DNA of 64,000 bases from Alphaproteobacteria bacterium (GCA_028866275.1 JAGWIK010000009.1:8339-72338); one strand, 5' to 3'. Counted from the stretch's first letter, positions 22 through 21,089 are shown. The notes: generated from the letters alone by a model not told the origin. Numbers and translations are program-made.

Positions 22-366
22 TTGCTTGGCCTACAGCTCTATATGATGTCGCCTTTAAGCTGGGATGCTTTGTATGAGTGTTTGAAACTTGAGCTTTATA
101 TGCCGACAGTGCGCATTATGCTCTACGGGCTTTTCCCGGCTGCCATCGTGTTCTTTGTCATGGAAAAGGCCGCCCCCATACGTTGCTGCTGGGCGGGTAG
201 CATGGCCGCGCTGGCGGTCGCCTGTTTCGGCTATATCCTGCTGCGTCTGACCGATGGTATGGACGACCCCATGCGGGTGGCAATGTGGTATTTTATGCCG
301 GTGGGGCTGATGGCGGTGGTCGGCATGATGGCTGGCGGCATGACCCTGAAAAGGGTTTGGCGATAG
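22..366 (+). CDS. hypothetical polytopic membrane protein, possibly the 3' part of a gene that starts upstream of the window
   Basis: ORF track; hydrophobic Met-rich sequence; the frame is open from the window edge. Confidence 0.3.
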   Translation: MLGLQLYMMSPLSWDALYECLKLELYMPTVRIMLYGLFPAAIVFFVMEKAAPIRCCWAGSMAALAVACFGYILLRLTDGMDDPMRVAMWYFMPVGLMAVVGMMAGGMTLKRVWR

Positions 367-410: not shown

Positions 411-968
411 ATGGAACAGTGGATGAAAACAGACATCATCGTGACGCAGTGGCTTAATTCCTTTGCCGGACAATCTGGTATCCTTGATTCTTTGATGATC
501 ATCCTAACCAGTTATGGAGTCGTTCTGCTGGTTGCGTTGATTGCAATGCGTTGGTGGTCAAAACGTGATCGACCAACTGTCCGCTATATGGCTATCTGTT
601 GCGGTATGGCCACGGCGTGCGGCCTCTTTTTAAACCAAATCATTCTTATCTTTCTTCATCGGATACGTCCCTATGATGCGGGGGTGACAAAGCTTCTTAT
701 TGACAAAAGCCACGACCCTTCGTTCCCATCCGATCATGCGACGGTGGTCTTTGCAATTGCCTTTTCGCTGTTACTTCAACGAGATCGCTACACTGGGTTT
801 TTCCTGGCATCTGGAGTCCTCATTGGCCTTTCCCGCATCTATGTTGGAACACACTATGTCTCCGACATTCTGGGTGGTGCATTGACCGCTACCGCCGCCA
901 CTTATCTGGTGGCGCGTCTGTACAAACAGGAATCACCACTTAACCGACTGCTTGTCAGGATATTATAG
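411..968 (+). CDS. PAP2 family phosphatase (undecaprenyl-diphosphatase-like)
   Basis: PAP2 motifs KxxxxxxRP, PSDH and SRIYVGTHYVSD; multiple TM helices. Confidence 0.8.
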   Translation: MEQWMKTDIIVTQWLNSFAGQSGILDSLMIILTSYGVVLLVALIAMRWWSKRDRPTVRYMAICCGMATACGLFLNQIILIFLHRIRPYDAGVTKLLIDKSHDPSFPSDHATVVFAIAFSLLLQRDRYTGFFLASGVLIGLSRIYVGTHYVSDILGGALTATAATYLVARLYKQESPLNRLLVRIL

Positions 969-1020
969 GGAGGGCGAAAATGTGCCCATCCTGTCTCTAA
1001 CGCCATAACACTAGCTCCAA

Positions 1021-1049
1021 TGTAACTTTTGCACGGCCTGAAGCGAATA
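1021..1049 (+). promoter_or_regulatory. ECF-sigma-like promoter motif copy 1 (TGTAAC-N17-CGAATA) upstream of mini-protein A
   Basis: TGTAAC at 1021-1026, 17-nt spacer, CGAATA at 1044-1049, about 60 nt before the ATG at 1110. Same architecture as the copies at 1276, 3396, 12074 and 19360. Confidence 0.5.
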
Positions 1050-1109
1050 GGTCGCATGATAAGCCATGCCTGAAGGCTGGCTTCGATAACCACAATCAGG
1101 AGAATTCTT

Positions 1110-1241
1110 ATGTCGCTCATGTGCAAAATGTCGAATAGCTGCTGTGCCACAAAAGGCATGTGCGTCCATGAAAAAATGATGATGATTATGGTGCTTATTG
1201 CCATGCCGGTGCTCGGACACTTCGTGTTGCGTTGGTTTTAG
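1110..1241 (+). CDS. unannotated 43-aa Cys-rich tail-anchored mini-protein A (MSLMCKMSNSCCATKGMCVHEKMMMIMVLIAMPVLGHFVLRWF)
   Basis: AGGAGA RBS 6 nt upstream of ATG. Four Cys in the N-terminal part, Met-rich C-terminal TM helix. Paralogous to the 51-aa ORF at 3486. Below the ORF-track length cutoff. Confidence 0.45.
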   Translation: MSLMCKMSNSCCATKGMCVHEKMMMIMVLIAMPVLGHFVLRWF

Positions 1242-1275
1242 GGCTGAGAAGGAATCTTTTGTGCGTGGAGTCCTA

Positions 1276-1304
1276 TGTAACTTTTCTGCAGGCTCCATCG
1301 AATA
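1276..1304 (+). promoter_or_regulatory. ECF-sigma-like promoter motif copy 2 upstream of the bufferin precursor gene
   Basis: TGTAAC at 1276-1281, N17, CGAATA at 1299-1304, 64 nt before the ATG at 1369. Confidence 0.5.
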
Positions 1305-1368
1305 GGGTGTCATGGTTCGACTTATCCCTGAGTTGTGACCTTTCATCAAACTAACCAAGGAGATCACG

Positions 1369-1734
1369 ATGAGTAAGATGCTTGAAAAGAACTATGGCTT
1401 AATCAACGCTGGCAAGAACGGCTGTCCGGGCAAACACCCCCATCCACAACCGTCAACTTCTACGGCGAGCAAGGCCGTCCTGTGCGCCGCGCTTGTTGGC
1501 CTGATGGCTGTTGGCGCTGCAGGCCAAGCCTTTGCCGCCGACAATGGCATGATGGCAGGCAAAGAAAAGTGCTACGGCATCGCCAAGGCTGGCAAGAACG
1601 ACTGCAAGTCCATGACCGGTTCGCACTCATGCGCTGGCATGTCCACCAAAGACAATGACCCCAACGACTTCAAGATGGTCAATACCGGCGAATGCGCCAA
1701 GGATGGCGGCACCATCGCGGCCCCCACGAAGTAA
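1369..1734 (+). CDS. bufA: bufferin-type RiPP precursor (DUF2282, BufA-like) with Sec signal peptide and an unusual ~30-aa N-terminal extension
   Basis: AGGAGA RBS. Core EKCYGIAKAGKNDCKS...HSCAG...GECAKDGG is typical of DUF2282. Hydrophobic h-region ends AFA/AD. Followed by DUF692, DUF2063 and DoxX. Confidence 0.7.
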   Translation: MSKMLEKNYGLINAGKNGCPGKHPHPQPSTSTASKAVLCAALVGLMAVGAAGQAFAADNGMMAGKEKCYGIAKAGKNDCKSMTGSHSCAGMSTKDNDPNDFKMVNTGECAKDGGTIAAPTK

Positions 1735-1791
1735 GAAGGCAACCGGGATACGGCCTCTGCGGAGGCCGTATCTTTTTCCTGCAGGGGAGTT

Positions 1792-2655
1792 TTGATGAGT
1801 AATCCATATCCCGATCTTGGTTTTGGCCTAGGCCTTCGTGCGCCTCATTATGAGCAGGTTTTACGCGAGAAACCCAAGGTCGATTTCTTCGAAATCATCT
1901 CCGAAAATTACATCGACGCGCATGAAGGCTATTGGGAGTATCTGGCCGATCTCCGCGCCCATTATCCGATGATCATGCATGGCGTGTCGATGAATATCGG
2001 CAGCGCCGATCCGTTCAACGACGACTATTTCCGTAAACTGAAAAAGCTGATTGACCATTTGCAACCGATCTGGGTGTCAGATCATCTGTGTTTTACAGGC
2101 CTCGGCGGCCACAACACGCATGACCTATTGCCGATCCCTTATGTTCAGGAGTCCTTGCAGCACGTTATTTCCCGTATTCATGAGGCGCAGGAAAAGCTAG
2201 GGCGGACGCTGGTGATCGAGAACCCATCGACCTATCTGGAGTTTCAAGCCTCGGATATTCCCGAATGGGAATTTCTGCGCGAAGTAGCGAAAGCGACTGG
2301 CTGCGGCGTCTTGCTCGACGTGAATAACGTCTATGTCAGCAGCTTCAATCACGGCTATGACCCGAAGCAATATATCGACGCCATCCCCGCCGATGCCATC
2401 GCCCAAATCCATCTGGCCGGACATTTGAATCTCGGCACGCACATCATCGACACGCATGACAATCATGTCATTGACGCGGTGTGGGATTTGTACGCTTACA
2501 CCGTTGCCAATAAAGGTTTGCACAGCACGATGATCGAGTGGGACGACAACATCCCCGCTTTTAATGTCCTTCTGGCTGAAATCAACAAGGCGCGCGATGT
2601 CGCCCTGCGTTCAACAACCAACGATGATGCCCATGTCTTACAACGCCGCGCTTAA
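1792..2655 (+). CDS. bufB: MNIO (DUF692) multinuclear non-heme iron oxidase, BufB-like
   Basis: N-terminus GLGLRAPHY... and overall DUF692/UPF0276 pattern; operon context with DUF2282 and DUF2063. Confidence 0.85.
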   Translation: MMSNPYPDLGFGLGLRAPHYEQVLREKPKVDFFEIISENYIDAHEGYWEYLADLRAHYPMIMHGVSMNIGSADPFNDDYFRKLKKLIDHLQPIWVSDHLCFTGLGGHNTHDLLPIPYVQESLQHVISRIHEAQEKLGRTLVIENPSTYLEFQASDIPEWEFLREVAKATGCGVLLDVNNVYVSSFNHGYDPKQYIDAIPADAIAQIHLAGHLNLGTHIIDTHDNHVIDAVWDLYAYTVANKGLHSTMIEWDDNIPAFNVLLAEINKARDVALRSTTNDDAHVLQRRA

Positions 2656-3400
2656 TCATTTACAGAGCAGCATTCTGCACGGCGATCCAGCCGAAGCCGC
2701 GTCGCTCGTGCGCCCGAAACCGCATTTGTCCGCCGAGAAGCAGTTGGGCGTTTACCTTGAAGGCTATCGGTTGCGACTTGTACAGGCTGTGCGCAATGAT
2801 TATCCCTGCCTTGGCCATTATCTCGGCGCAACGCGCATGAACGATCTGGTCGCGGCTTATGTGGAGGCGACACCTTCGTGCTCCTACAATCTCGATTTTT
2901 ATCCGTTCGGGTTTGGCGCGTTTGTCCGGCAGGCCAGTCAAGACCCGGCGGCACACGATCTCGCCGTACTAGAGCAGGCCATCGCCGAAATCTTCATGGC
3001 GCCTGACAGCAACCCACTGACCGCCGCCGTTTTTGCGCAGCTGGATCCGGAAACGCTGGGCAGTATGGTTTTCTACCCTCGCGCCGCGAACCGCCTGTTG
3101 CGCCTGACGCATGATGTCGAGCGCTACCTTGCGGCATGGAAGAAGGGCGAGCCGGAATTGACCATCGCTCCCGACAGGATTCACCTCTGTGTCTTGCGGC
3201 ACAACAACGAAGTGCAGCGGCATCGGCTGGAGCCGGAGGAATACCATCTGCTGGAAAATCTCGCGGCAGGACAAGTTTTTGGTCAGGCAATTGAGCCACC
3301 ACAGGCCAACCACCCACAAGACAGCGACCTTTTCGCCGCGAAGGTCATGAACTGGCTGCCGCGCTGGGTTGGAGAAGGTTTTTTCAAGCAGTCCATGTAA
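2624..3400 (+). CDS. bufC: DUF2063 MNIO partner protein, BufC-like (start uncertain, 2564-2633)
   Basis: Follows DUF692 with overlap; in-frame ATGs at 2624, 2627 and 2633 near the MNIO stop. Confidence 0.65.
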   Translation: MMPMSYNAALNHLQSSILHGDPAEAASLVRPKPHLSAEKQLGVYLEGYRLRLVQAVRNDYPCLGHYLGATRMNDLVAAYVEATPSCSYNLDFYPFGFGAFVRQASQDPAAHDLAVLEQAIAEIFMAPDSNPLTAAVFAQLDPETLGSMVFYPRAANRLLRLTHDVERYLAAWKKGEPELTIAPDRIHLCVLRHNNEVQRHRLEPEEYHLLENLAAGQVFGQAIEPPQANHPQDSDLFAAKVMNWLPRWVGEGFFKQSM

Positions 3401-3424
3401 CTTTCAGGCTTGTTCCCCCGAAGA
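3396..3424 (+). promoter_or_regulatory. ECF-sigma-like promoter motif copy 3 (TGTAAC-N17-CGAAGA) upstream of mini-protein B
   Basis: TGTAAC at 3396-3401, N17, CGAAGA at 3419-3424, 61 nt before the ATG at 3486; lies in the 3' end of bufC. Confidence 0.45.
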
Positions 3425-3485
3425 CGTTGGCAGAGACCAAAAACACCGTCCCATCGGGGCTAAACGTTATTTGCAGGAGGTTGTC

Positions 3486-3641
3486 ATGTCGGATTTATCC
3501 GAAAATCAAATCAAAGCTCAGGACGGCGAAAGCTGCGCAACCGGGGCCTGCGGCACCGGCATTTGCTCGCCCTGCACGATGATGAAGGTGATCATGATTG
3601 GCATGCTGGCCTTGGCTGGCTTCAAATATCTGGCGGGGTAA
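3486..3641 (+). CDS. 51-aa Cys-rich tail-anchored mini-protein B (MSDLSENQIKAQDGESCATGACGTGICSPCTMMKVIMIGMLALAGFKYLAG)
   Basis: Strong AGGAGG RBS 5 nt upstream of an internal ATG of ORF 3369..3641. Four Cys, then a Met-rich TM helix. Stop is 3 nt before DoxX. Paralogous to the 1110..1241 ORF. Confidence 0.5.
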   Translation: MSDLSENQIKAQDGESCATGACGTGICSPCTMMKVIMIGMLALAGFKYLAG

Positions 3642-3644
3642 GAA

Positions 3645-4127
3645 ATGACCAATCGGCAAACTCACGTGATCGAGAGCGGTTCAACATGCGGTACGATGTG
3701 CAAATGGATGGGGCAAGGCATGCGCGCCTATCTGGCTCTCACGAACTTTCTAAGTCCCTTGGTCTGGCTGGCGGCGCGGTTATGGATTGCGCGGGTGTTC
3801 TTCTATTCTGGATTGACCAAAATCCACGATTGGTCTTCGACGCTGTATCTTTTCGAGAACGAATACCATGTGCCGTTGCTGCCAATCCCTGTGGCGGCGT
3901 TCTCGGCGGCGCTGTTCGAATTAAGCTGTCCCGTGCTGCTCGTGCTGGGGTTCGGAACCCGTCTTGCCGCGCTGCCGCTACTGGCCATGACGGCGGTCAT
4001 CCAGTTCACCTATGACCAGAATATCGAGCATCTCTACTGGGCCTTGCTGCTCGGCCTCTTGCTGACCAACGGGCCGGGAAAACTGTCGGTCGATCATTGG
4101 GTGCGGCGGCGCTGGATGGGGCAATAA
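3645..4127 (+). CDS. bufD: DoxX family membrane protein (BufD-like)
   Basis: DoxX-like 4-TM pattern; operon position after DUF692/DUF2063. Confidence 0.7.
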   Translation: MTNRQTHVIESGSTCGTMCKWMGQGMRAYLALTNFLSPLVWLAARLWIARVFFYSGLTKIHDWSSTLYLFENEYHVPLLPIPVAAFSAALFELSCPVLLVLGFGTRLAALPLLAMTAVIQFTYDQNIEHLYWALLLGLLLTNGPGKLSVDHWVRRRWMGQ

Positions 4128-4128
4128 C

Positions 4129-4983
4129 ATGCCCCGCAACATCATCGATCTCGGCGAGCTTCATGACCGAATTGTCGTGTTTGGCGGTCCCTATAGCAAT
4201 CTTGAAGCGACCGAGGCTCTTCTAAAGACAGTTGACGATCTGGGCGTTCCGCGCAGCCATGTGCTGTGCACAGGCGATATGGTCGCGTATTGCGCCGATC
4301 CTGTCGAAGTGCTCGCCTTGTTGAGGTCGTCTGGGTTCGGCTTGCTGCTCAAGGGCAATTGCGAGGAAGCGCTGGCGAATAATGCGAAAGACTGCGGATG
4401 CGGCTTTGATGAAGGCTCGGCCTGTCATCGCCTGTCGAAGGATTGGTACAGCCACGCGGTGCAAAGCCTCGACGATGAAACAAAGCAATGGTTAGCGGGA
4501 TTGCCCGATCAGGCCGTATTCAACTTTGGGGGCAAGCGCTTCAGTGTCGTGCATGGCGGTGCCCGCCAGAATAATGCTTTCATTTTTGAAACGACGCCGC
4601 ATTCCGTTAAGCGTGAAGAAATAGAATTGGCCGGCAGTGACGCCGTTATCTGTGGCCACAGCGGCCTCTTTTTTACCGAAGTTTTTGGCGAGGCCTGTTG
4701 GCACAATGCCGGCGTTATCGGCATGCCTGCCAATGACGGAACGCCGCGCGTTTGGTACAGTGTCATCGATTCTATTCCTGAAGGCATCCGCTTTTCCCAT
4801 CTTCCTCTGGCTTACGACTTCAAAATAACCCAAGAGAAAATGCGTAAAGCAGGGTTGCCCGAAGGCTACGCTTCTGCCTTGGAGACGGGACTTTGGCCAT
4901 CGTGTGATGTTTTGACGGACGCAGAAAAGCAAAAATGCGGTGTAGAGGCGGTGCCGCGCCAGCACATTTGGAAAACGGTGTGA
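4129..4983 (+). CDS. calcineurin-like metallophosphoesterase
   Basis: VFGGPYSNLEA...GDMV and later GHSG motifs of metallophosphatases; 1-nt gap after DoxX. Confidence 0.55.
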   Translation: MPRNIIDLGELHDRIVVFGGPYSNLEATEALLKTVDDLGVPRSHVLCTGDMVAYCADPVEVLALLRSSGFGLLLKGNCEEALANNAKDCGCGFDEGSACHRLSKDWYSHAVQSLDDETKQWLAGLPDQAVFNFGGKRFSVVHGGARQNNAFIFETTPHSVKREEIELAGSDAVICGHSGLFFTEVFGEACWHNAGVIGMPANDGTPRVWYSVIDSIPEGIRFSHLPLAYDFKITQEKMRKAGLPEGYASALETGLWPSCDVLTDAEKQKCGVEAVPRQHIWKTV

Positions 4984-4998
4984 AGACAGTGCGGGGAA

Positions 4999-5676
4999 TT
5001 GATGAACAAATTTAACTTTAGTCAGCGTCTTATAAGCGAGCTACTCGGCACAGCTTTGTTGCTTGCTGTCGTTGTCGGTTCTGGAATCATGGGGGAGCGG
5101 CTGGCGGGTGGTAATGTTGCTCTTGCGCTGCTTGCCAATACTATTGCGACAGGCGCGGCGCTGGCGGTTCTTATCACAATCTTCGGGCCGATCTCCGGCG
5201 CGCATTTTAACCCCGCCGTGACCTTGGCTTTCTTTCTGAAGCGGGAAATAAATTGCCATACCGTTTTGGTCTATGTCGTAGCGCAGATTGCAGGCGGTGT
5301 GCTTGGCGTCTTTGCCGCGCACATGATGTTTGCCGAACCTGTTTTACAAATCTCGACAAAGCTACGGGACGGGTCGGCCTTGGCTTTTTCTGAATTTGTG
5401 GCGACATTCGGCCTCATGGCAACTATTCTCGGCACGGTACGTTTCAAGCCGGACTTTACGCCTGTTGCTGTTGGGCTTTATATCACCTCAGCCTATTGGT
5501 TTACGGCTTCGACCTCTTTTGCGAATCCCGCCGTGACGATTGCCCGATGCCTGTCTGATACATTCGCGGGAATTGCGCCGTCGTCCGCGCCCGTCTTTAT
5601 CGCGGCGCAGTTCCTGGGCGCGATCGTGGCTACCGCCGTGTTCGGCTGGTTGCTTAGAGAAAGGACTACCTCATGA
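4999..5676 (+). CDS. MIP family channel (aquaglyceroporin-like, possible arsenite channel)
   Basis: Two NPA boxes (HFNPAVT, FANPAVT); six TM helices. Confidence 0.85.
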   Translation: MMNKFNFSQRLISELLGTALLLAVVVGSGIMGERLAGGNVALALLANTIATGAALAVLITIFGPISGAHFNPAVTLAFFLKREINCHTVLVYVVAQIAGGVLGVFAAHMMFAEPVLQISTKLRDGSALAFSEFVATFGLMATILGTVRFKPDFTPVAVGLYITSAYWFTASTSFANPAVTIARCLSDTFAGIAPSSAPVFIAAQFLGAIVATAVFGWLLRERTTS

Positions 5677-6377
5677 CGGCGCGAACTGGACGCTTGCCGT
5701 TTGGCAGAATTATTGTCGTGGCGATCCTGCTGTCGCTGTTTGCGGCGGCATTCGCCTTCGACTTGCCGCATTACCTGACGCTTGATGCTTTGCGGGAACG
5801 GCAAATTGCGCTCAAAGCCTATCAAACGGCTCATCCATCGTTGGTCATAGCTGGGTTTTTTCTGATTTATGTTGCCGCGGCAGCGATGTCTTTCCCCGGT
5901 GCTACCGTGCTGACGTTACTGGGCGGCGCTTTGTTTGGTTTCTGGCAGGGACTTTTCGTGGTTTCTTTTGCCAGCACGATTGGGGCAACGCTGGCTTTTC
6001 TGTTGGCGCGGTATCTGTTGCGCGACTGGATTCAGAAGAAATATTACAAGCAACTTGCGATCCTGAATGCCGGATTTGAAAAGGAAGGCGCGTTTTACCT
6101 GTTCGCTTTGCGGCTCATGCCCGTATTCCCATTCTTTCTGGTCAATATCCTGACCAGCGTGATGCCGATCAAGACCCGCAGCTTCTACGGTGCAAGCCAG
6201 CTTGGCATGCTGCCGGGAACGGCGGTTTATGTTTATGCCGGGACGGAACTGGGTAAACTACAATCCGTGTCAGGTATCGCCTCACCATCGTTGATTGCTG
6301 CCTTTGTGTTGCTGGGGTTGTTTCCCTTGCTTGCTAAAAAAGGCATTTCTTATATTCGTAACCGGAGGCAAGCATGA
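5673..6377 (+). CDS. TVP38/TMEM64 (DedA/SNARE-associated) family membrane protein
   Basis: VTT-domain pattern; overlaps the neighbouring genes. Confidence 0.75.
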   Translation: MTARTGRLPFGRIIVVAILLSLFAAAFAFDLPHYLTLDALRERQIALKAYQTAHPSLVIAGFFLIYVAAAAMSFPGATVLTLLGGALFGFWQGLFVVSFASTIGATLAFLLARYLLRDWIQKKYYKQLAILNAGFEKEGAFYLFALRLMPVFPFFLVNILTSVMPIKTRSFYGASQLGMLPGTAVYVYAGTELGKLQSVSGIASPSLIAAFVLLGLFPLLAKKGISYIRNRRQA

Positions 6378-7813
6378 GCAAATACGACTATAACGTCATC
6401 GTTGTTGGCGCAGGGTCAGCCGGTTTGGTTTCCGCCTACATTGCCGCTACCGTGAAAGCTAAGGTTGCGCTGATTGAAAAGCATAAAATGGGCGGTGACT
6501 GCCTGAACACTGGATGCGTGCCCAGCAAGGCTTTGTTGCGTTCGGCTAAAATGCTGTCTTACGCCAAACGCGCCAAGGAATTCGGCTTTAACCGTACGGA
6601 AGTCGACTTTGACTTCGCCAAAGTGATGGAGCGCGTGCAGTCGGTGATCGCCTCCGTCGCGCCTCACGACTCGGTGGAACGCTATAGCCAACTGGGGGTC
6701 GCATGTATTTCCGGCGAAGCGCAAATTGTCGCGCCGCAAAAAGTGGAAGTGAATGGAAAGACGCTGACAGCGCGGAGCATCATTGTGGCGACGGGAGCAC
6801 GACCTTTGATTCCGCCAATTCCTGGGCTTGATCGGATAGACCATCTGACCAGCGACACGGTGTGGAATCTCCGCGAATTGCCGAAGCGTCTCGTTGTGCT
6901 TGGCGGCGGGCCGATTGGCGCGGAAATGGCGCAAGCTTTTGCGCGCCTTGGTTCCGACGTCACGATTGTCGAAATGGCTTCGCATCTTCTGGTGCGCGAA
7001 GACGCCGAGGTTATTGATCTGATCGCGCAACGTTTCCGCAACGAGGGCCTTACCGTTCTGACCGAACACAAGGCCAAGGCGTTCAGCAACAAGGATGGCC
7101 AGAAGGTTCTGACCTGCGAACACAATGGCAAGGATGTCGAAATTCCTTTCGATCAAATTATCGTCGCCCTAGGACGGCAGGCCAATATCAAGGGATTCGG
7201 CCTGGAGGAATTGGGCGTTAAACTCAGCCCGCGCAAAACCATCGAGGCCGACGCGTTTTTAGAAACCAACATCCCCAATCTTTATGTCTGCGGCGATGTG
7301 ACAGGACCATATCAGTTCACCCATACCGCCGCGCATCAGGCGTGGTACGCTTCCGTGAACGCGCTGTTCTCACCCTTCAAGCGTTTCAAGGTTGATTACG
7401 GCGTCATTCCATGGACGACCTTTACCGATCCGGAAGTCGCGCGTGTCGGCCTCAACGAGAAAGACGCCAAGGCGCAGAACATCCCCTACGAAGTCACGAC
7501 CTACGGCCTCGACGATCTTGACCGCGCCATCGCCGACAGCGAAGCACATGGCTTCGTGAAGGTTCTGACGGTTCAGGGCAAAGACAAAATTTTGGGTGTG
7601 ACCATTGTCGGAACACATGCCGGCGACATTATCCCTGAATTTATCCTTGCGATGAAGCACGGTTTGGGGCTGAACAAGATTCTTGGCACAATCCATATTT
7701 ATCCGACGCTTGGCGAGGCCAACAAATACGCGGCGGGCGCGTGGCGCAAAGCCCATGTTCCAGCCCTTGGATTAGCTGTTCTAAAAGTATTTCATGCATG
7801 GAGAAGGAATTAA
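6374..7813 (+). CDS. FAD-dependent pyridine nucleotide-disulfide oxidoreductase (mercuric reductase / dihydrolipoamide dehydrogenase-like, no NmerA and no C-terminal Cys pair)
   Basis: GAGSAG FAD motif; redox-active CLNTGCVPSK; dimerisation-domain C-terminus. Confidence 0.8.
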   Translation: MSKYDYNVIVVGAGSAGLVSAYIAATVKAKVALIEKHKMGGDCLNTGCVPSKALLRSAKMLSYAKRAKEFGFNRTEVDFDFAKVMERVQSVIASVAPHDSVERYSQLGVACISGEAQIVAPQKVEVNGKTLTARSIIVATGARPLIPPIPGLDRIDHLTSDTVWNLRELPKRLVVLGGGPIGAEMAQAFARLGSDVTIVEMASHLLVREDAEVIDLIAQRFRNEGLTVLTEHKAKAFSNKDGQKVLTCEHNGKDVEIPFDQIIVALGRQANIKGFGLEELGVKLSPRKTIEADAFLETNIPNLYVCGDVTGPYQFTHTAAHQAWYASVNALFSPFKRFKVDYGVIPWTTFTDPEVARVGLNEKDAKAQNIPYEVTTYGLDDLDRAIADSEAHGFVKVLTVQGKDKILGVTIVGTHAGDIIPEFILAMKHGLGLNKILGTIHIYPTLGEANKYAAGAWRKAHVPALGLAVLKVFHAWRRN

Positions 7814-7814
7814 A

Positions 7815-8786
7815 ATGGAAGGAAGCGCATTTATTGCCAGCTTCGGCAAAACGCTAAAAGACCACAACCTCACAATTGAGCGGAAAGCCGTAACGACTCT
7901 ACAAGTCAATATCGGCAAGCTGTGCAATCAGGCTTGCCACCATTGCCATGTCGAGGCGGGCCCCAAACGCACTGAAATCATGGAACGGCGCACCATCGAC
8001 CGTATTCTCGAACTTCTGGCAAACGAACCGCAGATAACGCTGGTGGATATTACCGGCGGTGCACCAGAACTCAATCCGCACTTCCGCGACTTTGTGAAAG
8101 TCCTTCGCAACATGGGTAAAGGCGTGATTGATCGCTGCAATCTTACCGTTCTGTTTGAAGAGGGACAGGAAGACACGGCTGAATTTCTTGCCCAACAGAA
8201 AGTGCAGATCGTCGCCTCGCTGCCCTGTTATCTGGAAGATAATGTTAACAAACAGCGCGGGCAAGGCGTATTCGGCAAAAGCATCGCTGCGCTGGAAAGA
8301 CTGAACGTCTTGGGGTATGGCCGCACGGGAAGCGGATTGGAAATCAATCTTGTTTACAACCCCGTCGGCACGCACCTTCCTCCAGCCCAAGAAAAACTCG
8401 AAGCCGATTATCGCCAGTATCTTTCAGAGAATTACGGCATTACCTTCAATCATCTCTTTACAATCACCAACATGCCGATCAAACGATTTGCCCATATGTT
8501 GGAACGTGATGGTTTTGCTGAGCAATACATGCAGCTTTTGATTGACAATTTTAACGTAGGTGCGGCTCGGCAAGTGATGTGTACGCAGCTTATTTCCATT
8601 GGCTGGGATGGCAAGCTGTATGATTGCGACTTTAACCAGATGCTTGGGATTCCGCTGAATTTCAAATCACGCACACTCTGGGACATTCCCTCGTTCGCGT
8701 CGCTGGATCGCGGTATTGCCTTCGCCGACCATTGCTTCGGATGCACGGCGGGCGCGGGAAGCTCGTGTACCGGTGCCTTGCTTTAA
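7815..8786 (+). CDS. arsS: arsenosugar biosynthesis radical SAM protein ArsS (Cys-containing, not Sec)
   Basis: CNQACHHCH radical-SAM motif; C-terminus CFGCTAGAGSSCTGALL; GGAGAAGG RBS before the ATG at 7815; adjacent to arsM. Confidence 0.8.
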   Translation: MEGSAFIASFGKTLKDHNLTIERKAVTTLQVNIGKLCNQACHHCHVEAGPKRTEIMERRTIDRILELLANEPQITLVDITGGAPELNPHFRDFVKVLRNMGKGVIDRCNLTVLFEEGQEDTAEFLAQQKVQIVASLPCYLEDNVNKQRGQGVFGKSIAALERLNVLGYGRTGSGLEINLVYNPVGTHLPPAQEKLEADYRQYLSENYGITFNHLFTITNMPIKRFAHMLERDGFAEQYMQLLIDNFNVGAARQVMCTQLISIGWDGKLYDCDFNQMLGIPLNFKSRTLWDIPSFASLDRGIAFADHCFGCTAGAGSSCTGALL

Positions 8787-10732: not shown

Positions 10733-11418
10733 AACTTTCGGTCATCATTCCGTTGGCTGAAGGCGAACAGGCTTGGCGCGATCTGCTGCCCGATCTTGCC
10801 GCCTTGCCTGCGGACAGCGAGGTTATCCTTGCGCTGCCGCAGGATGCCTCTCCACTCGATCTGCCGGCGATCCATTCCTCCCTCACCATACGGCAAGTGC
10901 GCGAAGGCTCCGGACGCGCCCGGCAGATGAACGCGGCGGCGCGCACAGCCCAAGGCGCTCAATTGTGGTTCCTTCACGCGGACTCCCGCCTGCATCCGGA
11001 GACGATACCTGCCTTGTTGCGCAGGCTGGGGGAATATCCCGACTGGCTGCTTTATGCCGATCTTGTCTTTTCCGCAGATGCGCCTTTCCTGATGAAGCTG
11101 AACGAAATGGGGGTTTGGTTTCGCTCCCATGCGCTTGGCATGCCCTTTGGCGATCAGGGGCTGTGCATCAGAAAAAAGACTTTCTATGAACTTGGCGGTT
11201 ACCCTGAAGATGTCGCGTATGGCGAAGACCATGTCTTCGTCTGGCGAGCGCGGCAGCGCGGCATCCGTCTGCGCCCTATGGGTGCACGCCTAACCACAAG
11301 CGCGCGCAAATACTGCGAGCGCGGCTGGCTGAAGACAACGCATTTGCATCTTTGTCTCACTCTGAGGCAGGCATGGCCGGAGTGGCGTAGACTTATGATG
11401 TCGGGTGATAAGGCATGA
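10729..11418 (+). CDS. family 2 glycosyltransferase associated with rSAM/ArsS clusters (TIGR04283-like)
   Basis: GT-A fold signature; position in the ars cluster. Confidence 0.6.
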   Translation: MKLSVIIPLAEGEQAWRDLLPDLAALPADSEVILALPQDASPLDLPAIHSSLTIRQVREGSGRARQMNAAARTAQGAQLWFLHADSRLHPETIPALLRRLGEYPDWLLYADLVFSADAPFLMKLNEMGVWFRSHALGMPFGDQGLCIRKKTFYELGGYPEDVAYGEDHVFVWRARQRGIRLRPMGARLTTSARKYCERGWLKTTHLHLCLTLRQAWPEWRRLMMSGDKA

Positions 11419-12122
11419 CCGGCGCGCTCGCCATCTTCGCTAAAACGCCTGGATTGTCGCCGGTTAAGACGCGACTTGCCACCGCTATCGGCGTTAAAAA
11501 GGCGGAAGAATTCTACCAGCATAGCGCCAAATGCGTCGAGGAACTCGCGCTTGATGCTTCGCGCATGAGCGAAGGCAGTCTTGTTCCTTACTGGGCGGTA
11601 GGCGAGCAAAACGGCCATGATCATCCTTTATGGATGAACATGAATCGTCTTTGGACTGGGCGTGGCGATTTAGGTGACCGGCTGCACCATGTTTACGCTA
11701 CGCTTCTGCAACAGCACGACCACGTTATCCTGATTGGCACCGACAGCCCCCAGCTTCCGGTTTCAGCCGTTCTAACCGCTCATGAGCATTTGAAGCGTAA
11801 AACCGGTCCTGTCATCGGCCCGGCGGATGACGGCGGTTACACTCTTTTCGGAGGGCATGTGCCCCTGCCACAGGCGTTATGGACGTCCGTGACCTACAGC
11901 GTCTCTACGACATGCGCAGATTTTGCAAAAAAGCTGAAGCCTTATGGCCCCATCCTGTTTCTTGAGCAAAGTTACGATATCGACATTCTGGACGATGTGA
12001 CAAAGCTACGAAACGATGAGGCCCGCATGATCGGCAAGGCTCAAAAAGCGCTGCTGGCATGGATTGAGCAGAATGTAACTTTCCGTGCGCATCCGGCGAA
12101 TGAGTACGAAGTCGTCGATTGA
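11415..12122 (+). CDS. DUF2064 / TIGR04282-like transferase associated with ArsS clusters
   Basis: N-terminal AIFAKTPGLSPVKTRL pattern; 4-nt overlaps with neighbours. Confidence 0.55.
   Translation: MTGALAIFAKTPGLSPVKTRLATAIGVKKAEEFYQHSAKCVEELALDASRMSEGSLVPYWAVGEQNGHDHPLWMNMNRLWTGRGDLGDRLHHVYATLLQQHDHVILIGTDSPQLPVSAVLTAHEHLKRKTGPVIGPADDGGYTLFGGHVPLPQALWTSVTYSVSTTCADFAKKLKPYGPILFLEQSYDIDILDDVTKLRNDEARMIGKAQKALLAWIEQNVTFRAHPANEYEVVD
12074..12102 (+). promoter_or_regulatory. ECF-sigma-like promoter motif copy 4 (TGTAAC-N17-CGAATG) internal to the array, upstream of DUF547-P450
   Basis: TGTAAC at 12074-12079, N17, CGAATG at 12097-12102, 34 nt before the ATG at 12137. Confidence 0.45.
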
Positions 12123-12136
12123 CCGGTGGAGTTTTT

Positions 12137-12889
12137 ATGAAAATCAGACTGATTACGTTTTTAACACTTTTGTTGGGCTTGTTTCTTACGGGCACGGCTC
12201 CGGCTTTGGCCTCCGACGACTACCTGACGCCTTATGACGGCTTGCTGGCGCAATATGTGAAGCCCGGCAACAAAGATGGCATTAACGCGGCGCTGGTCGA
12301 TTATCGCGGCTGGGCCAGAGATCCCCGGCATCTTCAGGCCATGGTGTCCTTGCAAAAGGCCAATCCGGAGACGCTTATCTCACGCGAAGAAAAAGCCTTC
12401 TGGATCAACGCTTACAATCTGCTGACCATCGATTTAATCATCCACCACCCCGACATTGCCAGCATCAAAGACCTCGGCAACTTATTGCAAAGTCCGTGGA
12501 AGGCCTATGACTGGAAGATTGGCGGCCACACTTATACGCTCGACGATATTGAGCAGAGGATTCTGCGCAAGCGCAACGATCCGCGCATTCACATGGCCAT
12601 TGTTTGCGCCTCGCTGTCTTGCCCCGATCTTCGTAATGAAGCCTATCGCGCAGATAAACTGGATGCTCAGCTTGACGATCAAGCCAGGAGGTTCCTGTCC
12701 AATCCCGCCAAGGGACTCAAAGTCATGCCTTCAGGCGTCATCCTGTCACCCATTCTGAAATGGTATGCGGAAGACTTTGGCGACGAAAAAGGCGTATTGG
12801 CTTTTGTTGCGCATTATGCCGTTGGTGTGCCGACCGGCGCAACCATTGATGATTATTTTACTTATAACTGGAATTTAAATCGTCCATGA
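12137..12889 (+). CDS. DUF547 domain secreted protein
   Basis: ATG at 12137 with GGTGGAG RBS; signal peptide MKIRLITFLTLLLGLFLTGTAPALA; the ORF-track start at 12119 is a TTG. Confidence 0.55.
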   Translation: MKIRLITFLTLLLGLFLTGTAPALASDDYLTPYDGLLAQYVKPGNKDGINAALVDYRGWARDPRHLQAMVSLQKANPETLISREEKAFWINAYNLLTIDLIIHHPDIASIKDLGNLLQSPWKAYDWKIGGHTYTLDDIEQRILRKRNDPRIHMAIVCASLSCPDLRNEAYRADKLDAQLDDQARRFLSNPAKGLKVMPSGVILSPILKWYAEDFGDEKGVLAFVAHYAVGVPTGATIDDYFTYNWNLNRP

Positions 12890-19359: not shown

Positions 19360-19388
19360 TGTAACTGTATGCTCAAACGGGACGAATA
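19360..19388 (+). promoter_or_regulatory. ECF-sigma-like promoter motif copy 5 (TGTAAC-N17-CGAATA) upstream of the AhpD-like gene
   Basis: TGTAAC at 19360-19365, N17, CGAATA at 19383-19388, 43 nt before the ATG at 19432. Confidence 0.45.
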
Positions 19389-19431: not shown

Positions 19432-20007
19432 ATGACATATCCAGTTCACACAGAAACAACTGCACCCGAAAACGCGCGCGCCATTCTGGCGCAAGCGAAG
19501 GGAAAATTCGGCTTTATCCCTAATCTTTTGGGGACGATGGCCAACGCGCCGGCTTTACTCAAAAGCTATCTTACCCTGGCGCAAATATTTGAAGAGACTT
19601 CTCTAACTCCAACAGAACAGCAGATTGTTCTGTTGGCGGCCAGTTATTCGAACGGCTGCACCTATTGCATAGCAGCGCACACGGTCATTGCCGGGATGAA
19701 GAATGTGCCAGCCGAAGTCGTAGCTTCGCTACGGAACAATAAGCCGATCAAGGATGCAAAGCTCGAAGCCCTGCGTTTGTTTGCTTTTGATGTTACCGAA
19801 AAGCGTGGGCATCCTTCCGAAGAAAGCCTGAAACGTTTTCTGGCTGCCGGATATACACCAGTGCAAGTACTGGAAGTTGTTCTGGGCGTTGGCTTTAAAA
19901 CCTTGTCCAACTACACCAACCATCTGACAAAAACTCAGCTCGATTCCGCTTTTTCCAACGCAATCTGGACGGAAGCAAAGCAAGAATGCGCGTGTTGCTG
20001 CGCTTAG
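19432..20007 (+). CDS. carboxymuconolactone decarboxylase / AhpD-like protein with Cys-rich C-terminal tail (KQECACCCA)
   Basis: AhpD-core CxxC-type motif CTYCIAAH; C-terminal ECACCCA. Confidence 0.7.
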   Translation: MTYPVHTETTAPENARAILAQAKGKFGFIPNLLGTMANAPALLKSYLTLAQIFEETSLTPTEQQIVLLAASYSNGCTYCIAAHTVIAGMKNVPAEVVASLRNNKPIKDAKLEALRLFAFDVTEKRGHPSEESLKRFLAAGYTPVQVLEVVLGVGFKTLSNYTNHLTKTQLDSAFSNAIWTEAKQECACCCA

Positions 20008-20019
20008 GATGCCGGAGGG

Positions 20020-20721
20020 GTGTATCCCATGAACTGGCTTGCCAGTAACTGGAACGATCTGTTGCCGTCTCCATGGTCGAGCGCGGCTCTGACGCTTGTC
20101 TCCATTTTCTGTGGCGCCATCGTTGGCATCGAGCGCGAGAGAAAGGAGAAATCTGCAGGGCTACGCACGATGATTTTGATTAGCGCAGGCTCAACCGTCT
20201 TTACGCTCGCCTCCTTCGTTTTGGCTGGAAATCAAGGCGATCATGGGCATGTCGCCGCCCAGATCGTCAATGGTATTGGCTTCCTCGGCGCAGGAGCCAT
20301 ATTACGCGGCACCTATGGCGTAAGAGGCATGACGACGGCGGCAACGATCTGGGCTGTCGCTGCGATGGGCATGGTGGTGGGGACCGGCTACGCTGGCGCA
20401 GGACTGGGGTTGGCGGGTCTCATTTTGACCGTATTGGTCAGTGCCACGGCACTGGATAATCGGTATCTAGGCCCCTGCAAACTTGCCCAAGTGCTTGTTT
20501 CCTATGACGCGATGGGCGGGAAGACATCCGTCAAACTTGATCGCATTCTCGACGATCACCGTATCGCGAAACAGGTGCGCAAAACGCAATCCTTGGAAGA
20601 CGGCTCGTTTCAGTTGCGCCTGACCTACTGCAACGTTCACAAACATCACAAAGAATTCTTGCCTCAAATTGCCGAAATGCCTGAAGTGCGTGAGATACGC
20701 AAAGAGGCGCATCCTTCTTAA
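20020..20721 (+). CDS. mgtC: MgtC/SapB family membrane protein
   Basis: N-terminal MgtC signature LVSIFCGAIVGIERE. Confidence 0.8.
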   Translation: MYPMNWLASNWNDLLPSPWSSAALTLVSIFCGAIVGIERERKEKSAGLRTMILISAGSTVFTLASFVLAGNQGDHGHVAAQIVNGIGFLGAGAILRGTYGVRGMTTAATIWAVAAMGMVVGTGYAGAGLGLAGLILTVLVSATALDNRYLGPCKLAQVLVSYDAMGGKTSVKLDRILDDHRIAKQVRKTQSLEDGSFQLRLTYCNVHKHHKEFLPQIAEMPEVREIRKEAHPS

Positions 20722-21089
20722 CAACACCCCGTTGCTTCGACCGGAGCCGATTGACCGCTAACAAAATCTTTGTACGCTTTGAAAGCTTTTAACGCCCACA
20801 TCTCGCCAACGCAGCCGCCCATGACGGAGGCCGTTGCCAAAAATTCACCCAGCTCGTTTTGTGTCGCACCAAGCTGGACGGCCTGTTGCACGTAGAATTT
20901 AAGGCATGGCTCGCAACGGGCGGATATCGACCACAGGATCGCCGATAACGCCTTGAAGCGAGCTGGCACAGCCCCTTCCGTGAAAACAACGTCCTGCCGC
21001 ATCTGATGTATATGTTTGGTTGTGCCGTTTGTGATCTGTCCAAACTCGGCAAGCAACCCTAAGGCTGGATCAATATCTGTTAGAGACAT
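20718..21089 (-). CDS. small carboxymuconolactone decarboxylase (CMD) family protein ending in GCC
   Basis: CEPCLKFY motif of the CMD/AhpD core; immediately downstream of merP on the same strand. Confidence 0.6.
   Translation of the reverse strand: MSLTDIDPALGLLAEFGQITNGTTKHIHQMRQDVVFTEGAVPARFKALSAILWSISARCEPCLKFYVQQAVQLGATQNELGEFLATASVMGGCVGEMWALKAFKAYKDFVSGQSAPVEATGCC

Follow-up and report, generated by a model that had tools for sequence, protein, structure and literature searches.

Bufferins and oxazolins are recently discovered and very widespread copper-binding ribosomally synthesized and post-translationally modified peptides. The conserved bufferin genes listed in two published surveys comprise the precursor, the MNIO maturase, its DUF2063 partner, DoxX, the sigma factor SigF and NrsF only (PMC11626156, PMC12452194). 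Extra conserved genes were very rare, and unannotated open reading frames (ORFs) formed no families in the MNIO survey (PMC12452194). We analyzed a 64-kb stretch of DNA from an alphaproteobacterial genome (GCA_028866275.1, JAGWIK010000009.1:8339-72338; hereafter “the window”), in which a bufferin locus carries two further genes, ORF A and ORF B, encoding Cys-rich proteins of 43 and 51 aa with a single C-terminal transmembrane (TM) helix. No such small component is named in either survey, in agreement with the first-pass annotation of the window, which had considered the two ORFs to be undescribed parts of a bufferin operon.

ORF A and ORF B are almost certainly real, conserved genes under the control of extracytoplasmic function (ECF) sigma factors. 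They represent two families of Cys-rich membrane proteins of 40-57 aa, which were previously missed and which accompany bufferin-type, mercury-resistance (mer), DsrE and thioredoxin modules. That these families were overlooked is largely due to their shortness and inconsistent annotation. We place them among the Cys-rich mini-membrane proteins of stress regulons, and genomic context favors metal or thiol handling among the three roles that the first-pass annotation proposed, namely metal binding, service as an MNIO substrate and partnership with a sensor.

Two small genes in the bufferin locus

The locus lies at the start of the window and is arranged as follows.

22-366, plus strand: 3′ part of nrsF, encoding the SigF anti-sigma factor (Pfam PF06532 NrsF, E=1.9e-12, profile positions 120-203/204)
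411-968: PAP2 phosphatase gene
1021-1049, plus strand: promoter P1, SigF-type ECF, TGTAAC-N17-CGAATA, found by pattern search, 61 nt 5′ of ORF A
1098-1103, plus strand: Shine-Dalgarno (SD) site of ORF A, AGGAGA, read from the sequence, 6 nt before the ATG
1110-1241, plus strand: ORF A, A-type mini-protein, 43 aa, translation MSLMCKMSNSCCATKGMCVHEKMMMIMVLIAMPVLGHFVLRWF
1276-1304, plus strand: promoter P2, SigF-type, upstream of bufA, found by pattern search and comparison with the published SigF site
1369-1734, plus strand: bufA, bufferin-1 type precursor with DUF2282 and a Sec signal (Pfam PF10048, E=5e-24)
1795-2655, plus strand: bufB, MNIO maturase (NCBIfam NF050167 MNIO_BufB, 362.5 bits, cut-off 310; Pfam PF05114)
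about 2624-3400, plus strand: bufC, DUF2063/HvfC-like partner (Pfam PF09836, E=1.6e-13), its start picked among the in-frame ATG codons that overlap the 3′ end of bufB
3396-3424, plus strand: promoter P3, SigF-type, TGTAAC-N17-CGAAGA, overlapping the bufC stop codon, 62 nt 5′ of ORF B
3475-3480, plus strand: SD site of ORF B, AGGAGG, read from the sequence, 5 nt before the ATG
3486-3641, plus strand: ORF B, B-type mini-protein, 51 aa, translation MSDLSENQIKAQDGESCATGACGTGICSPCTMMKVIMIGMLALAGFKYLAG
3645-4127, plus strand: doxX, bufD/HvfX-like (Pfam PF07681, E=1.8e-18; weak MauE match)

The nrsF gene is cut by the window start, and sigF itself lies outside the window edge. The positions, lengths and translations of both ORFs, their strong SD sites and the 3-nt gap between the ORF B stop codon (ending at 3641) and the doxX ATG (at 3645) are as the first-pass annotation had described them. 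So is the shared architecture, in which four Cys residues and a Met-rich junction are accompanied by a hydrophobic helix at the C-terminus; AlphaFold2 (AF2) places this helix at residues 19-42 of ORF A and 29-50 of ORF B. ORF A has a Cys3-His, Met-rich N-terminal segment of ~22 aa ahead of its TM helix. In ORF B, a charged N-terminus is followed by a Cx4Cx4CxxC cluster, ending in a CSPC motif that the AF2 model locates at the helix N-cap, then by a conserved Lys and the TM helix. A six-frame scan of the whole window for at least three N-terminal Cys followed by a C-terminal hydrophobic helix returned ORF A, ORF B and nrsF fragments only.

The description of both genes as unannotated holds for ORF A alone. 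ORF B is 100% identical to the 51-aa NCBI hypothetical protein KGI37_04915, a GenBank annotation from an alphaproteobacterial metagenome-assembled genome (MAG); in a mechanical ORF list it is masked, as had been stated, by a longer TTG-started ORF of 90 aa (3369-3641). ORF A itself is missing from a 5.8-billion-cluster protein collection, in which its best match is 86% identical, consistent with its being uncalled in the source record.

Conservation and coding constraint

A search of the protein collection with ORF A returned 18 homologs of 40-45 aa, in which M1, S2, M4, C5, C11, G16, M17, C18, H20, E21, M24 and M25 are invariant. A metagenome scan added 43 A-type loci, and the A-type family comprises 40 unique sequences of 39-45 aa. 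These follow the motif MSxMC-x4-5-C-x4-5-G-x-C-x-H-E-K-MMM, then a TM helix; the core pattern M..xC..C..G.C.H followed by a TM helix is present in 40/40, and the hydrophobic tail is variable in sequence. The mean A-type composition is 17% Met and 3.2 Cys, with 21% Met in ORF A (9/43).

The B-type family is rarer, with nine sequences that share the motif S-C-x-T-x-x-C-G-x-x-x-C-S-P-C-x-M-x-K followed by a helix with a Y-F end. A word-indexed protein search with ORF B found no match beyond itself, and a two-sequence profile added one member. A 51-aa relative emerged from a feature scan of BufB-related loci (L001; loci compared with the window are numbered L001-L143), a HMMER profile search of 1.84 billion representatives yielded six members (E from 1.6e-26 to 3.3e-4), and L111 contributes another.

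Both families bear the mark of protein-coding constraint. Pairwise nucleotide differences at codon positions 1/2/3 amount to 449/342/764 in the A family and 196/137/269 in the B family. For the closest B pair (L001 and L089) the counts are 3/3/14, with 10 synonymous and 6 non-synonymous codon changes. An SD sequence (GGAG or GAGG, 5-8 nt before the ATG) precedes every homolog inspected.

These data bear on the simplest alternative, namely that the ORFs are chance frames or non-coding leaders of bufA and doxX. Both ORFs are very short, ORF A was left uncalled in the source record and the B family is small. Against this reading, homologs of equal length with invariant Cys, His and Met residues occur in distant genomes, the sequences are retained while the gene neighborhood changes, and the genes have dedicated promoters as well as conserved SD sites. 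In addition, Rfam contains no RNA family that matches positions 900-3700. The same-length homologs, the third-position bias, the SD sites and the lack of an Rfam match thus make this explanation very unlikely, with a probability close to negligible, and we expect both proteins to be translated in vivo. A transcription-attenuation leader peptide, as the runs of Met and Cys codons might suggest, was rejected because the full-length protein, including its TM helix, is kept before differing downstream genes.

Neither ORF belongs to a Pfam or NCBIfam family in scans at E<=1, and searches of PDB sequences with both returned nothing meaningful; the literature, too, yielded no description of either family. 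A Pfam match of ORF A to “Delta ctenitoxin” (19.9 bits, cut-off 27) was dismissed as an artefact of the Cys pattern. Searches by tblastn with both ORFs against 80 BufB-related genome loci gave noise only; against plasmids, the A-type query gave nothing and the B-type query gave spurious IS3 matches only. The A and B families can be converted to hidden Markov models (HMMs) for annotation.

The first-pass annotation had called the two ORFs paralogous, for which we find no support. An hhalign comparison of the family alignments gave a probability of 10% over nine aligned TM columns, ORF B scored E=3.5 against the A-family HMM, and the SC(C)AT string that the two had been said to share is not conserved across the A family. 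A and B are therefore treated as two families of like architecture. Directly 5′ of a regular A-type gene in L092 (5810-5944, plus strand) lies a divergent 44-aa tandem copy, MSQTCSTEQCEEKCGTCGSHNK followed by a TM helix, with four Cys and a Cys in place of His at position 14. Since this copy scores 20.6 bits against the A HMM and contains a CGTCGS string recalling the B-type motif, it is a possible evolutionary link between the two types, and a very remote common ancestry of the families is possible.

Control by SigF-type and other ECF promoters

The motif TGTAAC-N17-CGAA occurs five times in the window, compared with 0.13 copies expected, and five copies were reached in 0/100 shuffles. Together with the window-wide feature scan, these counts argue that the observation is real and not a chance pattern. 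Three copies lie at 1021-1047, 1276-1302 (before bufA) and 3396-3422, of which the first and third bear out the earlier reading of a shared motif about 60 nt 5′ of each ORF. The motif matches the experimentally defined SigF promoter of Caulobacter, GTAACC-N16-CGAA (PMC3511200). Of the two remaining copies, one (12074-12100) lies within the end of a DUF2064 gene, just 5′ of a DUF547 gene (12137-12889). The other (19360-19386) lies 5′ of a CMD/AhpD-like gene (19432-20007) whose product has ...ECACCCA as a Cys-rich C-terminus; the minus strand bears another CMD gene (20718-21089), with a product ending in ...TGCC.

The same type of control is found among the homologs. SigF-type motifs stand upstream of both kinds of gene: of the A-type gene in L081, L085, L097, L101, L106 and L111, of the B-type gene in L097, L099 and L111, and of the operon that joins doxX and the B-type gene in L001 and L089. 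In loci that encode an ECF sigma factor together with a small soluble zinc-binding anti-sigma (ZAS) protein, an alternative conserved promoter of the GTAAGGA...CGAC form, TGTAAGGA...CGAC, is found 5′ of the small genes, of the sigma gene and of the adjoining operons. A cognate ECF promoter lies at most 160 nt upstream of 22 of the 40 unique A-type genes and in 4 of 8 B-type loci; several genes without an upstream site are internal to operons. Full sigF-nrsF pairs adjoin homologs in L001, L081, L096, L097, L099, L101 and L111, and an ECF sigma gene is located within 4 kb in nearly all loci. By promoter and locus, ORF A and ORF B fall within the predicted SigF (ECF16-type) regulon, and the promoter sites upstream of the homologs make membership in an ECF metal/oxidant-stress regulon a conserved property.

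The ZAS proteins in some of these loci are very short (59-90 aa), lack a TM helix and share the pattern MLNCK...HLMMCxGC (L092 3851-4030, L090 6735-7007, L086 8414-8608, L094 5093-5272). They pair with the ECF sigma factors that control 40-aa A-type variants.

Such close linkage to sigma and anti-sigma genes raises the question of whether the mini-proteins are themselves regulators. As co-sensors, or as modulators that feed back on the system much like MgrB on PhoQ, they would bind NrsF or tether ZAS and thereby tune SigF release. A-type genes come first in A-ECF-ZAS operons (L090, L109, L114, L116) or stand beside sigF-nrsF (the window, L097, L101, L117). Moreover, NrsF signaling is Cys-dependent, and its authors allow for “another yet unknown sensory component” (PMC3511200). 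Against such a role, the A family pairs with two unrelated anti-sigma types, the six-TM NrsF and the soluble ZAS, which argues against a specific regulatory protein fit. Many copies lie in structural operons far from a sigma gene (precursor-MNIO; merT-merA), and B-type genes follow doxX, not nrsF. A regulatory function is on this evidence quite improbable.

Two further observations concern transcription of the locus. A terminator-like hairpin with a T-run at 1758-1770, between bufA and bufB, could act as an attenuator that sets the precursor-to-enzyme ratio. On the same strand, 3′ of doxX, lie tightly packed genes (4129-8786) for a metallophosphoesterase, an MIP channel, a DedA/VTT protein, a pyridine-nucleotide-disulfide oxidoreductase and a radical-SAM DUF3641 protein (ArsS-like), and the DUF2064 and DUF547 genes follow farther downstream, within 11415-12889. 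We take this gene set to be arsenosugar/arsenolipid-associated, and transcription from P3 may read through into it.

Gene neighborhoods of the A-type family

A-type genes reside in MNIO/bufferin-type clusters in 19 of the 40 unique sequences, and conservation in syntenic loci of relatives, on which the first-pass annotation had staked its proposal, is thereby confirmed for ORF A. Within these clusters the gene often lies between the precursor and MNIO genes, and it does so in three precursor classes: BufA1 (L081, L096, L106), oxazolin-like EGKCG (L120) and CKGxNSCKG (L108). It is directly upstream of the MNIO gene, at gaps of 21-81 nt, in L081, L096, L102-L106, L108, L113, L119 and L120. In the window and L101 it stands after nrsF and before bufA, and in L111 its immediate upstream neighbor is bufC.

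About half of the A-type genes lie outside MNIO clusters, in other ECF-controlled thiol or metal settings. About 12 operons have the order A-type, DsrE, SoxA/TsdA-like cytochrome and NPCA-repeat secreted protein, divergent from ECF and ZAS genes. Elsewhere, an A-type gene precedes a thioredoxin gene (L085) or follows a thioredoxin-CcdA pair (L086), and in L094 and L097 it adjoins mer/HMA genes. The association with a bufferin/ECF locus drawn in the first-pass annotation stands insofar as the genes recur in such clusters; neither family is specific to bufferins, with about half of the A-type genes found elsewhere.

In L123 (2522-5414), an A-type gene is part of a mercury-resistance operon with the order merT-A-DsrE-merA. 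The secreted NPCA(x)K-repeat proteins mentioned above are ~90 aa long, with a signal peptide and 8-10 Cys (L086 6826-7116; L092 6633-6902; L129-L143). They recur in the ECF/ZAS-controlled operons of A-type, DsrE and SoxA/TsdA-like cytochrome genes, and they may represent another class of periplasmic metal-binding Cys-repeat proteins.

From its slot between precursor and MNIO genes, the A-type protein may be an adaptor in the membrane or a new kind of MNIO client that is anchored there. In the stricter form of this idea, the A-type and possibly the B-type protein would be an additional MNIO/BufC substrate. Conversion of its Cys residues in the cytoplasm would yield 5-thiooxazoles or oxazolone-thioamides, and the product would not leave through Sec but remain membrane-anchored as a fixed metallophore. 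The position directly 5′ of the MNIO gene is the classic precursor slot, occupied here in three precursor classes and in clusters that hold nearly half of the unique sequences. Precursor genes in tandem are also on record, as are TIGR04222 membrane proteins that have been proposed as MNIO substrates (PMC12452194). This recurrent placement keeps the idea in play. On the other side, a conventional precursor with a signal peptide is present as well in every MNIO cluster inspected, and no MNIO gene lies in the available flanks, of up to 6 kb, around about half of the A-type genes (L085, L086, L090, L121, L123 and the many A-DsrE-SoxA operons). The A-type proteins show no similarity to BufA1, Buf2 or oxazolin cores, and the B-type gene is linked to doxX and not to the MNIO gene. 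We consider it rather unlikely that these proteins are MNIO substrates.

B-type genes and DoxX

B-type genes were found beside doxX, bufferin and sigF-nrsF genes, so that ORF B, too, is conserved in its genomic setting. The B-type gene touches doxX in five of nine cases, and in both gene orders: it comes first in the window and in L099, while in L001, L089 and L098 doxX comes first and the two genes meet in an ATGA or 4-nt overlap. In two further cases (L097, L100) it adjoins instead a gene for a 66-68-aa CPxC two-helix protein. Four loci (the window, L001, L099 and L111) have bufABC and sigF-nrsF close to the B-type gene, and A-type and B-type genes co-occur in the window, L097 and L111.

Adjacency that is preserved despite a change in gene order is a classic sign of physical partnership. 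The adjacency kept under order inversion and the translational coupling suggest that the B-type protein works with DoxX. It is most likely an accessory subunit of DoxX, or of the CPxC two-helix protein where doxX is not adjacent. This tight, order-independent linkage offers a testable handle on DoxX function.

Several of these loci have further features of their own. The closest relative, a Rickettsiales MAG whose BufB is 67% identical (L001), contains a SigF promoter followed by doxX, B-type, msrB and msrA (4329-2757, minus strand), divergent from sigF-nrsF-bufABC; its MsrA has an N-terminal hydrophobic segment, which suggests export. The 66-68-aa proteins (L097 3068-3268, plus strand; L100 5043-5249, plus strand; L111 1356-1201, minus strand) have two hydrophobic segments, with CP(V/M)C at the start of the second, in a MerE/MerF-like layout. 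They are encoded directly after the B-type gene (L097, L100) or after doxX (L111) and look like a third small-protein family, which has no member in the first 14 kb of the window. In L097, an ORF for a 56-aa soluble Cys/His protein (2565-2735, plus strand; …NCPLCHTEEE…GSCTTGHCR) is placed between nrsF and the B-type gene and has a SigF-type promoter of its own (2459).

A proposed role in metal or thiol handling

Cys, His and Met are the standard ligands of Cu(I) and Hg(II). Given the residues that the two families preserve and the loci in which they reside, we tentatively propose the following mechanism. Under metal or oxidant stress, NrsF would release SigF, and ORF A and ORF B would be transcribed from their SigF-type promoters and thus be produced together with BufABC and DoxX. 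At the membrane surface, ORF A would present thiolates and ligands from Cys5, Cys11, Cys18, His20 and the Met ladder, and ORF B the thiolates of its Cx4Cx4CxxC cluster, with CSPC at the helix N-cap. These heads, probably on the cytoplasmic side, could bind or relay thiophilic ions (Cu(I), Hg(II), Cd(II)) or redox equivalents, as small mer Cys-pair membrane proteins do. The A-type protein would be a recurring accessory to operons for exported Cys-rich metallophores of the BufA1, Buf2-like, oxazolin-like and NPCA-repeat kinds. That the heads of both types serve as metal ligands or relays is, in our estimate, quite possible, a little short of an even chance.

The cytoplasmic placement of the heads is suggested by charge. 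The net charge on the N-terminal side of the helix is +1.7 for A-type and +1.1 for B-type proteins, compared with +0.45 and +0.56 for the C-terminal tails, a bias that weakly favors an N-in orientation.

A number of observations weigh against this proposal. The neighboring genes for periplasmic thioredoxin and CcdA would fit periplasmic Cys heads equally well. With a predicted local distance difference test (pLDDT) score of 70 for A and 63 for B, the AF2 models reach low to moderate confidence, and their Cys heads are folded too uncertainly for a metal site to be deduced. The DsrE, TsdA/SoxA-like, MsrAB and DoxX contexts point as much to sulfur or redox chemistry as to metal. Among 80 species-level BufB relatives, feature and HMM scans found a B-type gene in one (L001) and an A-type gene in none, a rarity which indicates that the two proteins are not needed for bufferin function generally; they are accessory, not core, components of bufferin loci. 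Finally, DoxX, with which the B-type protein presumably works, is reported not to be required in Caulobacter for maturing bufferin or for protecting the cell against copper, and to have no known function (PMC11626156).

The sulfur and redox contexts bring in a competing explanation, in which the proteins are thiol or thioether redox modules and not metal ligands. For the B-type protein, CSPC would supply a redox-active dithiol to a DoxX scaffold that lacks one; the two would make up a split oxidoreductase for thiols or sulfane sulfur, quinone-linked and similar to DsbB/MauE or DoxDA. The A-type protein, tethered to the membrane, would serve as a sacrificial sink for reactive chlorine, oxygen or sulfur species or as a relay for them, with recycling by methionine sulfoxide reductase (Msr), thioredoxin-CcdA or DsrE. 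In Azospira, SigF/NrsF controls methionine sulfoxide reductase and the sacrificial Met-rich peptide MrpX, which contains 20% Met (PMC4436054); the Met content of the A-type family given above is of this order. The msrB and msrA genes share the SigF-driven operon of doxX and B-type in L001, and thioredoxin, CcdA, DsrE and TsdA/SoxA-like genes are among the A-type neighbors. MauE, a DoxX relative, replaces DsbB by means of a CXC site and quinone (bioRxiv 10.64898/2026.03.05.709764). The DoxX of the window weakly matches MauE; its membrane core has a single Cys (ELSCP), which the DoxX of L099 lacks (ELVMP). The location of CSPC at the helix N-cap in the AF2 model also resembles thioredoxin-type CxxC sites. 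Several points speak for metals instead. MrpX is soluble, Sec-exported and devoid of Cys, whereas the A-type protein lacks a signal peptide and its invariant Cys3-His resembles a metal site. The charge bias suggests cytoplasmic heads, where scavenging of HOCl or DsbB-like oxidation would be unexpected, and the mer, HMA and bufferin links point to metals. A purely redox role is, on balance, somewhat unlikely.

A bolder combination may also be considered, in which both proteins are new functional parts of MNIO/bufferin-type metal defense. The A-type protein would be either an obligatory membrane adaptor or an MNIO client that lacks a leader and is anchored in the membrane, and the B-type protein would be the missing redox- or metal-active subunit of DoxX. 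Here, the B-type CSPC on the quinone-binding scaffold of DoxX would constitute a split thiol:quinone oxidoreductase or a Cu(I)/Hg(II) relay. If this were so, the conserved and so far functionless DoxX (BufD/HvfX) would at last gain a biochemical role. We regard it as unlikely that both parts hold together. The main value of the two families lies in the handle that they provide on DoxX and on the membrane-level steps of bufferin-type metal defense.

Comparison with known systems

MrpX of Azospira suillum is similar to the proteins described here in that it is small, belongs to a SigF/NrsF regulon with a like promoter type, nearly equals ORF A in Met content (20% and 21%) and occurs in genomes with Msr enzymes, as does the B-type protein of L001, co-operonic with msrB and msrA (PMC4436054). 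It differs in being periplasmic and rich in charged residues, in addition to being soluble, exported by Sec and free of a Cys cluster (PMC4436054). The A- and B-type proteins, by comparison, have no signal peptide, a C-terminal TM helix, invariant Cys (in A-type also His) and no detected sequence similarity to MrpX, and ORF A, despite its Met content, accordingly falls outside the MrpX-like group.

MgrB offers a parallel of another kind, as a single-pass membrane protein of ~45 aa with a functional Cys, encoded in the regulon that it modulates; A- and B-type genes likewise lie near sensor or anti-sigma genes. There is no sequence relationship, the target of MgrB is a histidine kinase, and the A- and B-type genes occur with two types of anti-sigma factor and often in structural operons. 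ZAS anti-sigma factors carry H-x3-C-x2-C, unlike the A-type C-x5-C-x6-C-x-H; Pfam gives no zf-HC2 match for either ORF, and genuine ZAS proteins are encoded separately beside many homologs.

The small transporters of mer operons (MerE, MerF, MerT, MerC) are also short inner-membrane proteins, in which Cys pairs at the membrane boundary relay a thiophilic metal, and the CPxC two-helix partner of the B-type protein is similar to them in layout. They have two to four TM helices, with Cys in or between the helices, in contrast to the single helix of the A- and B-type proteins, whose Cys head lies outside the membrane. No Mer family model in Pfam or NCBIfam matches ORF A or ORF B at E<=1, and the window contains no mer operon.

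The two-subunit thiosulfate:quinone oxidoreductase DoxD/DoxA and the quinone-linked thiol oxidases of the MauE/DsbB type combine a DoxX-superfamily membrane protein with a separately encoded subunit, or a membrane-near CxxC/CXC dithiol, much as DoxX and the B-type protein may do. DoxA is a much larger protein, unrelated to the B-type family, and MauE and DsbB possess their own active-site Cys, unlike DoxX with its B-type neighbor. A further likeness lies in the tight linkage or translational coupling of B-type to doxX.

ORF A and ORF B are not precursors of the known bufferin classes: both lack the signatures of these (Sec signal, DUF2282 fold, BufA2, EGKCG), and their sole hydrophobic segment is C-terminal. 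With the bufferin core as a whole (BufA, BufB, BufC, BufD/DoxX and SigF-NrsF) they share locus, promoters and regulon, and across unrelated lineages A- and B-type genes turn up repeatedly in clusters of this kind.

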